Shown in pieces: positions 2,552 through 14,126 of a stretch of 64,000 bases of DNA (its first letter is position 1; each line of letters opens with the position of its first letter). The notes beneath the pieces were generated by a model. It was not told where the DNA came from. It ran no database searches and was given only the letters and a program-made list of their open reading frames with translations. The DNA is taken from assembly GCF_988243305.1 (NCBI RefSeq), contig NZ_OZ547136.1; one strand, 5' to 3'. The position numbers and the translations under genes are program-made.

Positions 2552-3730
2552 ATGAGTAATATTGTTTACCTGACAGTAACGGGAGAACAACAAGGAAACA
2601 TCTCCGCAGGTTGTGGGACTACTGAATCTATAGGTAATCGCTGGCAGAGTGGGCATGAGGATGAAATATTTACATTCTCACTCGCAAATAGAATTACTAA
2701 TACGGGACTTGGTTCACAGTTACAGGGTATGACATTTTGTAAATTAATTGATAAAAGCACTCCATTACTTATTAATTCCATTAACAATAATGAGCAATTA
2801 TTTATGGAATTTGACTTTTATAGAATCAATAGATTTGGTAGATGGGAAAAGTATTATTATATACAACTAAGAGGCGCTTTTTTATCGGCTATTCATCATC
2901 AGATCATTCAAAATCAACTGGATACAGAAACAATAACTGTTAGTTATGAATTTATCCTCTGTCAACATCTTATCGCAAATACCGAGTTCAGCTATTTGGC
3001 ACTCCCTGAAAATTATAACCGTTTGTTTTTACCAAATTCAAAAAACCAAACAAATAATCGTTTCAAAACTTTAAACAGCAAAGCTATTGGCAGGCTACTT
3101 GCTGCTGGTGGCGTATACAATGGGAACATTGAAGGATTCAGAGATACTGCGGAAAAACTGGGTGGAGATGCAATAAAAGGCTATGATCAAATACTAAATG
3201 AAAAAACAGCGGGCATAGCGATAGCAACAGCATCTATTCTTTTAACAAAGCGTTCTAATGTTGATACATATACAGAAATAAATAGTTACTTAGGCAAACT
3301 TAGAGGTCAACAAAAACTTCTTGATGGTATAGACATAATAGAAATAATATACATTAAGAGACCTTCAAAAGACTTAGCTAACTTACGAAAGGAGTTTAAT
3401 AAAACTGTAAGAAAAAATTTTCTTATCAAACTTGCAAAAACCTCCGAAGCATCTGGAAGATTCAACGCCGAAGACCTTTTAAGAATGAGAAAGGGCAATG
3501 TTCCTCTAAATTATAATGTTCACCATAAACTATCTCTAGATGATGGTGGTACTAATGATTTCGAAAATTTAGTATTAATCGAAAACGAACCATATCATAA
3601 AGTTTTTACTAACATGCAATCACGAATAGCTAAGGGAGTATTAGTAGGTGAAAGCAAAATCACTCCCTGGGCCATTCCATCTGGCTCAATTTATCCTCCC
3701 ATGAAAAATATTATGGAACCCACAAAATGA
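2552..3730 (+). CDS. yhhZ: Hcp-domain protein with a C-terminal HNH-like nuclease motif (T6SS-type polymorphic toxin)
   Basis: 392 aa; N-terminus IVYLTVTGEQQGN...EDEIFTFSL...KLIDKSTPLL fits the Hcp pattern; C-terminus has NVHHKLSLDDGGTNDFENLVLIENEPYH; AT-rich coding sequence. Confidence 0.85.
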   Translation: MSNIVYLTVTGEQQGNISAGCGTTESIGNRWQSGHEDEIFTFSLANRITNTGLGSQLQGMTFCKLIDKSTPLLINSINNNEQLFMEFDFYRINRFGRWEKYYYIQLRGAFLSAIHHQIIQNQLDTETITVSYEFILCQHLIANTEFSYLALPENYNRLFLPNSKNQTNNRFKTLNSKAIGRLLAAGGVYNGNIEGFRDTAEKLGGDAIKGYDQILNEKTAGIAIATASILLTKRSNVDTYTEINSYLGKLRGQQKLLDGIDIIEIIYIKRPSKDLANLRKEFNKTVRKNFLIKLAKTSEASGRFNAEDLLRMRKGNVPLNYNVHHKLSLDDGGTNDFENLVLIENEPYHKVFTNMQSRIAKGVLVGESKITPWAIPSGSIYPPMKNIMEPTK

Positions 3731-4221
3731 TGACTAAGACCCAAATAAATAAATTAAAAAAAATGATGAATGATTTAGACTATCCATTTGAAGCACCGCT
3801 TAAGGAATCATTTATTGAAAGTATAATCCAAATAGAATTTAATTCTAATTCAACTAATTGCCTGGAGAAGTTATGTAATGAAGTTAGTATTCTTTTTAAG
3901 AATCAACCTGATTATCTTACTTTTTTAAGAGCAATGGATGGATTCGAAGCTAATGGATTACGATTATTTAGCCTCTCGATTCCAGAACCTTCAGTTAAAA
4001 ACCTTTTTGCCGTAAATGAATTTTATAGAAATAATGATGATTTCATAAACCCTGATCTACAAGAACGGTTAGTGATCGGTGATGATAGCATTTCAATATT
4101 TACTTATGACATTAAAAATAACTTTTTTGAAATTAGAGATAATATTGGCACCGAAAATATATTCAGTTCGTTTAGTGATTTCTCTTCATTCTTAAACGAA
4201 ATCATGGACAGTTGTTCATAA
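3727..4221 (+). CDS. yrhA: Putative cognate immunity protein, translationally coupled to yhhZ
   Basis: 164-aa ORF overlapping the yhhZ stop (ATGA); AT-rich; intact here, whereas the K-12 locus is recalled to be interrupted by IS1. Confidence 0.6.
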   Translation: MMTKTQINKLKKMMNDLDYPFEAPLKESFIESIIQIEFNSNSTNCLEKLCNEVSILFKNQPDYLTFLRAMDGFEANGLRLFSLSIPEPSVKNLFAVNEFYRNNDDFINPDLQERLVIGDDSISIFTYDIKNNFFEIRDNIGTENIFSSFSDFSSFLNEIMDSCS

Positions 4222-10823: not shown

Positions 10824-10845
10824 AGTTAAACTCTTCGTGTTGTGT

Positions 10846-10990
10846 TCCCCTCACCCCGGCCCTCTCCCCAAAGGGGCGAGGGAGAAAGGCGGTGCATACT
10901 TTCCCACCGAGCGAAGTTGCAAACCGACACGGCACCTGGATACCACGCCGATCGGTCCCCTCTCCCTTTGGGAGAGGGTTAGGGTGAGGG
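10846..10990. repeat. Pair of inverted GC-rich REP-like extragenic palindromic elements between ugpA and ugpB
   Basis: 10846-10890 ...CCCTCACCCCGGCCCTCTCCCCAAAGGGGCGAGGGAG and 10955-10990 GTCCCCTCTCCCTTTGGGAGAGGGTTAGGGTGAGGG in opposite orientation; a third copy lies at 30131-30172. Confidence 0.6.
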
Positions 10991-10998
10991 TAAGAGAA

Positions 10999-12315
10999 TT
11001 AAGACTTCGTAGACTGCTCAAAGCGGCGCAGTAACTGGTTCCCACGCTCAACGGCGGTATCCAGTGCCTGCTGTGGTGTCTTCTTACCGGTCCACACGCT
11101 CTCCAGCTCTTCATCCACAATCACGCGGATCTGCGGCATGTTGCCCAGACGCAGCCCTTTGGTGAACGGTAACGGCGGCTTATTCAGCATCTGACGCGTC
11201 GCGGTATCCGCCCCTGGGTTTTTCTCATAAAAACCCTGCTCACGGGTCAGGTCATACGCCGCTTTGGTGATTGGCAGATAACCAGTTTTCTGATGCCACT
11301 CGGCAGCGTTTTCTGGCTTCGCGAGGAAGTCGAGGAACTTCGCCACACCCGTATAAGTTTCTTTATCTTTACCCTGCATTACCCACAAGCTGGCTCCGCC
11401 GATAATGGCGTTTTGTGGCGCATCTTTCGCATCGGCGTCGTAAGGCATCATGCCTACGCCGTAGTTAAATTTGGCGTACTCGCGAATGTTGGCAAGAGAA
11501 CCGGAAGAGGCGGTGGTCATCGCGCAATCACCGTTATAGAACTTCTCAGTGGATTCATCCTTACGCCCGACGTAGCTGAAATCGCCCTTCTTGTTCATCT
11601 CTTCGAGCATAGCGATGTGTTTCACCTGCTCCGGCTTGTTGAACTCCAGCACCGCGTCTGTGCCGTCAAAGCCGTTGTTTTTGCTGGCAAACGGCAGACC
11701 GTTCCAGGCGCTAAAGTTTTCCAGTTGGATCCAGCCCTGCCAGCCGCTGGCGTAGCCGCACTTCATACCGGAGGCTTTCAGTTTTGCGGCATAGTCCGCC
11801 AGATCCTGCCAGGTTTTCGGCGGCTGTTCCGGGTCTAAACCGGCTTTCTTGAAGGCGTCTTTGTTGTAATAGAGAACGGGAGTCGAGCTGTTGAACGGCT
11901 GGGAGAGTAAGTGGCCGGTTTTGCTGTCGGAGTAGTAGCCTGAAACCGTCGGCACAAACTGCGACTCATCGAACTGAATCCCCGCCTCTTTAAACACGTC
12001 ATATACCGGTTTAATGGCCTTCGACGCCATCATGGTGGCGGTGCCAACTTCATAAACCTGCAAAATAGCCGGCGCGTTGCCGGTACGAAATGCGGCAATC
12101 CCCGCGCTTAAATTCTGTTCGTAGTTGCCTTTATAGGTCGGTACAATTTTGTAATCCGGGTTTTCGGCGTTAAAACGTTGGGCCAGAGAATCCACCTCTT
12201 TACCCAGTTCCCCTTCCATAGAATGCCAGAACGGAATGGTCGTCACTGCCTGTGCATTCCCCATTAACGCCAGTCCGAGCGCCAGTGCTGAAGCTGTATA
12301 ATGTAACGGTTTCAT
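10999..12315 (-). CDS. ugpB: sn-glycerol-3-phosphate periplasmic binding protein
   Basis: 438-aa ORF with signal peptide, matching UgpB. Confidence 0.95.
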
Positions 12316-12433
12316 CGTTTATCTCTCTTGTTGTACCGAATGCGCGAATTCACGCGTTTTATGCTCGCGGGGTAACATGACATGCTCGAATTACAGAAAA
12401 ATAACTTTTTTGTTACATTTGTAAGATAGTAAG

Positions 12434-12451
12434 GTGTCAGAAAGATGACAA
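12434..12451 (-). promoter_or_regulatory. Pho box (PhoB site) in the ugpB promoter
   Basis: Minus strand TTGTCAT-cttt-CTGACAC, two 7-bp repeats 4 bp apart as in CTGTCAT-N4-CTGTCAT; about 120-135 bp upstream of the ugpB ATG. Confidence 0.5.
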
Positions 12452-12510
12452 GGCGGTGACGGCGTGGGTGAGGGAAAATGGGAGATGGGGCACGGATAAT
12501 GCTACGTTGG

Positions 12511-12542
12511 GGAAAATTAACGCGCCAGAGACTATCTGGCGC
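12511..12542 (-). terminator. Putative rho-independent terminator of the 248-aa TPR-like gene
   Basis: GCGCCAG-atagtct-CTGGCGC hairpin followed on the minus strand by TTAATTTTCCCC, just after the ORF stop at 12548. Confidence 0.4.
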
Positions 12543-12547
12543 AGCGC

Positions 12548-13294
12548 TTACTGAACAATACTCTGCTTCAGCCGTTCATTGGCGGTCTTAATCCATTCCC
12601 GGTGGTGTTTTCTATAATGCGGTCTTGAGCGTTTAGCCGTATCAACCACGGCAACATACTGCTCGTTGGCTTCACGTAACCGACTCATTTTCGCCAGCAT
12701 TTCCGCATAATAAATACGCGCCTGCGGGCCGGGGTAATAAGAAATCAATACTTCAAACTCGCTTTCCGCATCAGCGTATTTTTCTTGTGCGGCTAACGTT
12801 CTGGCAAATAACAAATGCCCGTCTGCCGACTGAAAATCAGGGTTATAACGCATCACATCTTCCAGCGTCTGCTGACAGGCGGCGAACTCCTGAATAGCAA
12901 ACTGCGCCTGCGCCAGGCTGAGCATCATTGCCGCTTCATGGACGAATATCCCGCTTAACGCCTGCTGATAATGGGGAACGGCTTCGTGATAACGCCCCAG
13001 ACGCGCCAGTTCATTAGCCAACGCATAATGGTTTTGATTCGTCTCGGCAATCGCCATTTCTTCGGTTAATTTGCGCAGGTGGCGCTCAGGGTTGACTTTG
13101 TCCTGCAGGCGCATCAGCAAAGTATGCCCGTGACGGTCAGCGCCCGTTTCAGGCAGCATCACTATGACGAAATACGCCACGCAGCCAATCACCGGAAAAC
13201 AGAAAATGATAAAAATCCAGTACCGCTCTTGTCCGGTACGGTAAGCGTGAATACAGCAAAGCAGTTCAAGCATGACAACAACGGCATAATGCAT
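12548..13294 (-). CDS. Hypothetical membrane-anchored protein: N-terminal two-helix PLDc_N-like domain plus TPR-like helical repeats
   Basis: 248-aa ORF; hydrophobic N-terminus YRTGQERYWIFIIFCFPVIGCVAYFVIVMLPE then amphipathic repeats (YALANELARLGRYHEAVPHYQQAL...); lies between the liv terminator and ugp promoter; host-like GC content. Confidence 0.65.
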   Translation of the reverse strand: MHYAVVVMLELLCCIHAYRTGQERYWIFIIFCFPVIGCVAYFVIVMLPETGADRHGHTLLMRLQDKVNPERHLRKLTEEMAIAETNQNHYALANELARLGRYHEAVPHYQQALSGIFVHEAAMMLSLAQAQFAIQEFAACQQTLEDVMRYNPDFQSADGHLLFARTLAAQEKYADAESEFEVLISYYPGPQARIYYAEMLAKMSRLREANEQYVAVVDTAKRSRPHYRKHHREWIKTANERLKQSIVQ

Positions 13295-13370
13295 GGGAGG
13301 GAACCTTTCCGTGGCAAATAAGTGGTCTGGTTTTAATCCTCCCGGTCAGTTGAAACAAGTCTGTATACGG

Positions 13371-13402
13371 ACGAAAAGCCCGGCAGAACGTGGCTGCCGG
13401 GT
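13371..13402 (-). terminator. Rho-independent terminator after livF (end of liv operon)
   Basis: CCCGGCAG-ccacgt-TCTGCCGGG hairpin followed by CTTTTCGT on the minus strand, 11 bp after the livF stop. Confidence 0.55.
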
Positions 13403-13412
13403 ATTCGATAAT

Positions 13413-14126
13413 TTACCCGCCTAAATACGCACTTCTCACCGCTTCGTTCGCCAGTAGTGCATCACCAGTATCGGAGAGCACCACATGACCGTTTTCCAGC
13501 ACGTAGCCGCGATCCGCCAGCTTTAGCGCCTGGTTGGCGTTCTGCTCGACGAGGAAGATAGTCATCCCCTGCTCGCGCAGCTGCTCGATGGTGTCGAAAA
13601 TTTGCTGGATGATAATCGGCGCCAGTCCGAGCGAGGGTTCATCAAGCAACAACAAACGCGGGTTGCTCATCAGCGCACGACCAATCGCCAGCATCTGCTG
13701 TTCACCACCAGACATCGTTCCCGCCCGCTGAACACGGCGCTCATGTAGACGCGGAAACAGTTCATAGACCCACTTTATGCGCTCCTGAAACTGGTCGCGT
13801 TCGGCAAAAAAGCCGCCCATCGCCAGGTTCTCTTCCACCGTCATCCGCGAGAAGACGCGACGCCCTTCCGGGACAATCGCTACCGCTTCGCGCATGATTT
13901 TCGCCGTCTGCCAGTCGGTAATGTCTTTATCATCAAACACAATTCGCCCACTGGTGGCGCGCGGATCGCCGCATAACGTGCCGAGCAAGGTGGTTTTCCC
14001 CGCCCCGTTCGCGCCAATAAGGGTGACAATCTCGCCCTGATTGATATGCAGGCTCACCTCATGCAGCGCCTGGATTTTGCCGTAGTGGGCGCTGACTTTG
14101 TCAAAGGACAACATGACTTTTTCCAT
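13413..14126 (-). CDS. livF: Branched-chain amino acid ABC transporter ATPase
   Basis: Start placed at MEKVMLSFDKVSAHYG (237 aa); Walker A GANGAGKTT. Confidence 0.95.
   Translation of the reverse strand: MEKVMLSFDKVSAHYGKIQALHEVSLHINQGEIVTLIGANGAGKTTLLGTLCGDPRATSGRIVFDDKDITDWQTAKIMREAVAIVPEGRRVFSRMTVEENLAMGGFFAERDQFQERIKWVYELFPRLHERRVQRAGTMSGGEQQMLAIGRALMSNPRLLLLDEPSLGLAPIIIQQIFDTIEQLREQGMTIFLVEQNANQALKLADRGYVLENGHVVLSDTGDALLANEAVRSAYLGG

Follow-up and report, generated by a model that had tools for sequence, protein, structure and literature searches.

A probably ancestral gene between the liv and ugp operons, missing from most Escherichia coli genomes, encodes a predicted membrane-tethered TPR protein

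Introduction

The window, the whole stretch of 64,000 nucleotides of contig NZ_OZ547136.1 that was analysed, holds between livF and ugpB a gene that K-12 does not have. The locus raises the question of whether this gene was inserted into a K-12-like ancestor or was lost on the way to K-12, and of what its product may do. The first-pass annotation had read it as a strain-variable single-gene insertion between the liv terminator and the ugp promoter, coding for a membrane-anchored protein with tetratricopeptide (TPR)-like repeats that could serve as a scaffold or sensor. The comparisons below uphold much of this description and reverse the direction of the event. With moderate confidence, we consider the gene an ancestral one between liv and ugp that ~85% of E. 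coli lost through one shared deletion and that would encode a membrane-tethered TPR adaptor.

Layout of the livF-ugpB spacer

The list of open reading frames (ORFs) of the window places ugpA and ugpB as well as livF, livG and livM on the minus strand. Between livF, with its stop codon at 13413-13415, and ugpB, with its start at 12315, lies a minus-strand ORF of 248 aa with an ATG start (12548-13294), just as initially described. The spacer that houses it measures 1097 bp vs. 398 bp in a K-12-type genome, which bears out the much shorter K-12 gap given in the first-pass annotation. RefSeq annotates the ORF in matching genomes as a 'tetratricopeptide repeat protein', and the exact 248-aa protein is already public (UniRef A0A1M2G7X7_ECOLX) and found on 366 contigs.

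The part of the spacer that varies between strains is a segment of 913 bp (12500-13412). It starts at 12499|12500 on the left and reaches up to the livF stop codon on the right. The ugpB upstream region (12316-12499, minus strand) is outside the variable segment, is common to all alleles and is 100% identical to K-12. Just after livF, a hairpin of eight base pairs, seven of them GC (13379-13401, minus strand), is followed by the T-tract CTTTTCGTCC and matches the liv operon terminator assumed in the first reading. This hairpin lies inside the variable segment, and K-12 has another hairpin in its place. With zero Rfam matches at E<=1 in the livF-ugpB spacer, a structured RNA or riboswitch was rejected there.

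The first-pass annotation gave the gene an upstream region and a putative terminator of its own. Five nucleotides past the stop codon lies a terminator-like hairpin (12521-12543, minus strand) followed by TTAATTTTCC, with an unexceptional folding energy (z = -1.4). On the 5' side, a simple scan of 13295-13378 found no consensus sigma-70 promoter. Inspection of the alignments by eye showed a weak promoter-like element missed by the consensus scan, TTGTTT-17 nt-TAAAAC (13330-13358, minus strand). Conservation across Escherichia extends over the 80 nt 5' of the start codon, also where they are preceded by another gene. E. coli, E. albertii, E. whittamii and C. freundii have the footprint ACAGACTTGTTTCA in identical form, and its conservation as far as C. 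freundii comes with a 17-nt spacer to a TA-rich hexamer. The conservation of the upstream 80 nt and of this footprint suggests a putative weak promoter belonging to the TPR gene itself.

Repeat content also depends on the strain between the ugp genes. The ugpA-ugpB spacer of the window (10824-10998) is 175 bp long and contains a GC-rich inverted pair (CCCCTCACCCCGGCCCTCTCCCC... / ...GGGAGAGGGTTAGGGTGAGGG), and the same spacer in K-12 is 97 bp long with ordinary REP elements.

Distribution of the gene among E. coli genomes

A megablast search with 12300-13420, the check suggested by the first-pass annotation for presence and boundaries, was run over 5426 complete E. coli genomes. The whole query is found in 658 of these genomes, and nearly all the remaining ones match its first 200 bases only, which are the ugp upstream region. 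The gene alone is carried by 659 genomes, always on the chromosome and with 93.6-100% identity. It is thus strain-variable and missing from K-12, as had been proposed, rather than a core gene shared by K-12 and essentially all E. coli. Carriers include O157:H7 (EDL933 among them), O55:H7, O145:H28, ST38 and O7:K1 CE10; genomes of the K-12 type, ST131 and O111:H8 are without the gene.

The K-12-type filler allele occurs in 4630 of the 5426 genomes (~85%), and ~137 have neither the TPR gene nor the full K-12-type filler. Of the 398 bp of the K-12-type spacer, the 184 bp beside ugpB are those of the window, and the other 214 bp are unrelated to it. These 214 bp consist of REP/BIME sequence and a different terminator hairpin, which replace the 913-bp segment, and no gene remnant was found among them in K-12. 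The gene-less junctions of K-12, ST131 and O150:H6 are identical.

The occupied alleles comprise at least three variants. The junction of the window, in which the hairpin lies directly beside the ugp upstream region, is rare among E. coli (17 of the 5426 genomes), and the same 3' junction is found in Escherichia sp. E1V33 and E. whittamii. The O157-type allele, that of most E. coli carriers, has ~127 extra bp between the stop codon of the gene and the ugp upstream region, and the E. albertii-type allele carries REP. At the site of the O157-type allele that corresponds to 12499|12500 of the window (L003, 1700-1875), the hairpin terminator of the window is not present.

The same site in other species and the direction of the event

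One genome per species was scanned for the gene, followed by tblastn with LivF, LivG, UgpB and UgpA of the window. In six other taxa the gene comes immediately after livF, with its orientation unchanged. The full livF-gene-ugpB order is found in five, namely Escherichia sp. E1V33, E. whittamii, E. albertii, Citrobacter sp. NCU1 and a Pseudocitrobacter MAG. The sixth, Escherichia sp. MOD1-EC7003, likewise has the gene after livF, but no ugpB within 4 kb downstream. In C. freundii the arrangement is alike, except that additional genes separate the TPR gene from ugpB, and E. fergusonii has a protein of 94% identity.

The spacer of the window aligns end to end with that of E1V33 at 96.5%. Six Escherichia and Citrobacter alleles were analysed, each of them an intact ORF of 248 codons, and the dN/dS of the TPR gene among Escherichia alleles is 0.07-0.23. 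These ratios, the hundreds of full-length homologues and the RefSeq annotation show, as far as sequence comparison reaches, that the gene is real and under purifying selection. Between the window and E. whittamii, dS is 0.30 for the TPR gene vs. 0.29 for livF. The divergence of the gene, 0-6.4% within E. coli and ~30% to Citrobacter, tracks or exceeds that of the flanks.

The insertion of a mobile element or genomic islet was rejected. The site is occupied in outgroups, the GC content of the segment is ordinary (0.49-0.52), its edges have no terminal or boundary repeats, target-site duplication or inverted repeats, and the ORF list of the window has no integrase or recombinase. A 16-nt imperfect inverted match between 12501-12516 and 13492-13507 has its second arm inside livF and was taken as chance. 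Comparison of the gene-less filler with the occupied alleles showed that ~95 bp of it, beside the ugp upstream region, are 89% identical to the E. albertii spacer downstream of the TPR gene. The gene-less allele would be derived, since its filler shares a spacer that lies downstream of the gene. Synteny, co-divergence, ordinary GC, the lack of repeats and the shared junctions likewise argue for an ancestral gene rather than an inserted one. The comparative evidence shows the gene to be, in all probability, ancestral at the livF-ugpB site in Escherichia/Citrobacter and the gene-less state to be a derived deletion, so that the insertion of the first-pass annotation is turned around.

Outside Escherichia, Citrobacter and Pseudocitrobacter the next best homologue has ~48% identity, followed by Pseudomonas with ~42%, in homology searches that did not include a direct look at Salmonella and Klebsiella. 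Because no close homologue appears beyond the three genera, an old transfer into the common ancestor or between-genera recombination via the conserved flanks is possible. In the draft assembly of the E. albertii type strain NBRC 107761 (L014, about 4555), the TPR gene is frameshifted at codons 185/186, representing either a pseudogene or a sequencing error. Given its loss from most E. coli and the frameshift in the E. albertii type strain, the TPR gene is dispensable.

Further small genes were observed around the TPR gene. E. whittamii (L013, about 3590-3890) and E. albertii (L014, about 3580-3920) have an extra ORF of ~95-110 aa between livF and the TPR gene. This ORF is conserved in both, encodes a small hydrophobic protein (MDFLTV..LKLFCCAVVLRW...) and is not in the window or O157. 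In C. freundii (L004, 5850-7324), two small ORFs (93 and 135 aa) and a PhdYeFM-antitoxin/Fic(Doc) pair lie between the TPR gene and ugpB. In MOD1-EC7003 (L010, 4744-8744), a 231-aa ORF overlaps the TPR stop codon (ATGA) and is followed by an IS200-like transposase ORF. The genes after the latter are presumably yhhA- and yhhX-like, as named from the K-12 map, and this lineage seems either to be without the ugp operon or to carry it elsewhere. The livF-ugpB spacer looks like a hot spot of small-gene gain and loss.

Protein architecture and family

The two-helix domain resembling PLDc_N and the TPR repeats recognised by the first-pass annotation are both matched by Pfam. The matches of the profile search, which had been suggested as a check, are TPR_19 (2.5e-5), TPR_1 and TPR_2 (1e-4) and PLDc_N (PF13396, i-Evalue 6.9e-4, residues 26-44). 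The protein is thus a TPR repeat protein of the Pfam TPR clan. Its assignment to PLDc_N is weak as a single-sequence match and is supported at the level of the family, in which PLDc_N is matched at E<=1e-3 in 19 and at E<=0.1 in 48 of the 67 members.

The AF2 model calculated on the 67-sequence alignment is all-helical (pLDDT 96, pTM 0.85). A hairpin of helices 2-19 and 25-52 is followed by 12 more helices, which form two linker helices, ~four TPR pairs and a cap. The predicted PLDc_N/ClsA-type membrane hairpin, placed by Pfam, hhalign, column conservation and AF2, comprises codons 1-48 (13151-13294, minus strand), with TM1 at residues ~3-18, a basic loop at 19-25 and TM2 at 26-47. TM2 contains the motif W26-x7-P34-x2-G37-x3-Y41, and Q10, H16 and E45 are conserved polar residues of the hairpin. 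The basic spacer and the two linker helices after TM2, as seen in AF2 and the alignment, occupy codons 49-85 (13040-13150, minus strand). They lead to the TPR domain of ~four helix-turn-helix repeats and capping helices at codons 86-247 (12554-13039, minus strand). In the 67-sequence alignment, H16, W26, P34, G37, Y41, P48 and P69 are invariant or near-invariant, and a GHLLYAR-like motif is conserved around residues 158-165.

An exhaustive homology search over 1.84 billion representatives returned 1808 clusters of the family at E<1e-3, 821 at E<1e-10 and 124 at E<1e-30. Nearly all of the 1808 are 243-256 aa long and align over their full length. In AFDB50 the family extends over gamma- and alpha-proteobacteria and Desulfonema, with members in Xenorhabdus, Pseudomonas, Xanthomonas, Lysobacter, Gilliamella and methanotrophs. 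None of these members has a functional name, one of them being auto-named 'LapB' in UniProt, and the literature search found no paper on the gene, consistent with the initial statement that its function is undescribed. The searches show a large, stand-alone, uncharacterised proteobacterial family of ~245 aa. Nine contexts of the gene (E. coli, C. freundii, P. alcaligenes, Exilibacterium and five metagenomic/SRA contigs) are all different and share no neighbour, and the assignment of a function from the gene neighbourhood was dropped. An anti-phage defence system was also rejected, with 0 PADLOC families at E<=1.

The ClsA-type hairpin and membrane topology

Comparison of residues 1-100 of K-12 ClsA with the family profile by hhalign aligned W26-M46 to ClsA W40-E60 (E 2e-5, prob 77%). 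The motif is in register, with W26/P34/G37/Y41 on W40/P48/G51/Y55. Both proteins have two hydrophobic helices, a short basic loop, W-x7-P-x2-G-x3-Y in TM2 and a basic spacer next. However, the hairpin of ClsA is followed by PLD/HKD catalytic domains, whereas TPR repeats follow here. A cardiolipin synthase was rejected on the TIGR04265 score (12.3 bits vs. a cut-off of 290, over residues 22-82 only), the lack of a PLDc Pfam match and the TPR nature of the C-terminal 200 aa.

The ClsA hairpin has been studied experimentally by Sawasato, Dowhan and Bogdanov (Sci Adv 2025, PMC11698083). They report that the ClsA domain past the hairpin is cytoplasmic as long as the cells are normal and contain PE, that the basic spacer behind TM2 signals retention, and that the hairpin is required for the topological inversion upon PE depletion or osmotic down-shock. 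In LepB, positive charges within ~30 residues after TM2 block export (PMC11698083).

In the present family, the N-tail has almost no K/R, the seven-residue loop has 2.2 K+R on average, and the 25 residues after TM2 have 5.1. Because the N-tail is without K/R and the inter-helix loop and the post-TM2 spacer are both basic, the positive-inside rule alone is ambiguous, as for ClsA. Cysteines in the soluble domain of the 67 members are common and unconserved, with 35 odd vs. 32 even counts; the protein encoded in the window has one, C139. An even-cysteine bias is expected of exported proteins in DsbA-containing bacteria, and the lack of such a bias argues mildly against a periplasmic domain. On the ClsA analogy, the basic spacer and the cysteine counts, the TPR domain is fairly likely to be cytoplasmic.

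Comparison with known TPR systems

LapB (YciM) is anchored in the inner membrane and serves as a cytoplasmic TPR adaptor in the presentation of LpxC to FtsH. Both LapB and the protein here are small, with a membrane anchor at the N-terminus and TPR repeats right after it at the membrane surface, and LapB is the best working analogy for the putative mode of action. However, LapB has a C-terminal rubredoxin-type zinc finger, whereas the protein here ends at residue 248 and has no CxxC pairs. We know of no PLDc_N-type hairpin in LapB. No LapB model is among the NCBIfam matches at E<=1, and LapB is not among the 60 PDB sequence matches listed. Without rubredoxin Cys pairs and a LapB NCBIfam match, the protein was not assigned to LapB/YciM.

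YfgM and CpoB/YbgF, TPR-like proteins that belong to the Sec/PpiD and Tol-Pal systems in the periplasm, differ from the protein here in the type of anchor and probably in the side of the membrane. CpoB/YbgF (TIGR02795) was rejected with 31.1 bits vs. a cut-off of 90.1 and with a two-helix hairpin instead of a cleavable signal peptide at the N-terminus. The YfgM-like arrangement, a TPR_21 (PF09976) profile match after a single N-terminal TM, was not found. The structural scores of YfgM and YbgF are no better than those of dozens of unrelated TPR proteins. The best structural matches are TPR scaffolds of the MamA, YrrB and Cdc16 types, at 10-20% identity and without the membrane hairpin. This similarity is that of the generic TPR fold and is uninformative on the ligand.

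Discussion

In the account that we favour, the gene would always have sat between the liv and ugp operons in the Escherichia/Citrobacter lineage. The ~85% of sequenced E. coli without it, K-12, ST131 and O111:H8 among them, would share one deletion allele with the gap filled by REP elements, and the strain of the window, O157:H7/O55:H7, O145:H28, ST38, CE10 and others would have kept it. The product would be a small inner-membrane protein in which the ClsA-homologous hairpin anchors a four-repeat TPR domain through the basic spacer. With the TPR domain facing the cytoplasm, the protein would be an adaptor that is tethered to the inner membrane and keeps one or several partner proteins there. 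Q10, H16, Y41 and E45, conserved polar residues of the hairpin, are possible contact sites for the head groups of lipids or for a second hairpin of the PLDc_N type. By analogy, the reading with the best support is that of a TPR adaptor which stands alone, is tethered to the inner membrane and works as LapB does, though outside the LapB family. Of the scaffold or sensor suggested at first, the scaffold is a reasonable reading and the sensor found no support.

Recent acquisition of a single-gene module by a K-12-like ancestor, with entry between the liv terminator and the ugp promoter, would agree with the lack of the gene in K-12 and 85% of complete E. coli genomes. The identity of only 42-48% to the nearest relatives outside Escherichia, Citrobacter and Pseudocitrobacter also indicates that the gene entered the lineage at some time. 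However, at least five lineages of Escherichia and three enterobacterial species outside the genus share the site and orientation, and the divergence between alleles keeps up with that of the flanks or exceeds it. Nor is there any target-site duplication, inverted repeat, integrase or GC shift, and spacer sequence of the gene-less allele has its homologue on the downstream side of the E. albertii gene. We consider a recent insertion extremely improbable. The loss in most E. coli may also be read as decay, in which the gene is a dispensable remnant without current function in E. coli that some lineages have kept by chance. The frameshift in the E. albertii type-strain assembly points the same way, as do the promoter scan that found no consensus and the lack of literature on the gene. 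However, the six intact alleles with their low dN/dS, the conserved 80 nt upstream and the conservation of the length and motifs of the family across proteobacteria make decay improbable.

The same gene and history could go with the opposite topology, N-out/C-out like leader peptidase, placing the TPR domain in the periplasm for a part in envelope biogenesis like that of YfgM or CpoB/YbgF. The basic inter-helix loop (2.2 K+R in seven residues) and the N-tail without positive charge fit such a LepB-like arrangement. However, the spacer after TM2 is basic as well (5.1 K+R in 25 residues), and post-TM2 positive charges block the export of LepB, while the homologous ClsA hairpin keeps its domain cytoplasmic (PMC11698083). 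The cysteine counts without even bias, the CpoB score far under the 90-bit cut-off and the YfgM/YbgF structural scores at the level of unrelated TPR proteins also stand against it. A periplasmic TPR domain is unlikely on this balance, though a credible competitor, and we retain the cytoplasmic adaptor.

The locus would represent a common presence/absence polymorphism from one old deletion rather than a fresh module, with K-12 in the derived state. The two modules of the protein are known, and their combination is an uncharacterised family, with the ClsA-type hairpin as its unusual angle. This proteobacterial family, of more than 800 clusters at E<1e-10, joins a cardiolipin-synthase-type hairpin to a TPR scaffold, and its function is unreported. 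It escapes work on K-12 as K-12 is without the gene; O157:H7 carries the gene, so the family is experimentally tractable. The homology of the hairpin to ClsA and the charge balanced on both of its sides also raise the idea of a lipid-responsive switch, in which the side of the membrane taken by the TPR domain, or its association with ClsA or a PLDc_N protein, would follow membrane composition. This idea is very improbable; if true, it would couple lipid state to protein-protein interaction. If the hairpin acts as in ClsA, the protein would provide a second, simpler test case for lipid-dependent membrane-protein topology.
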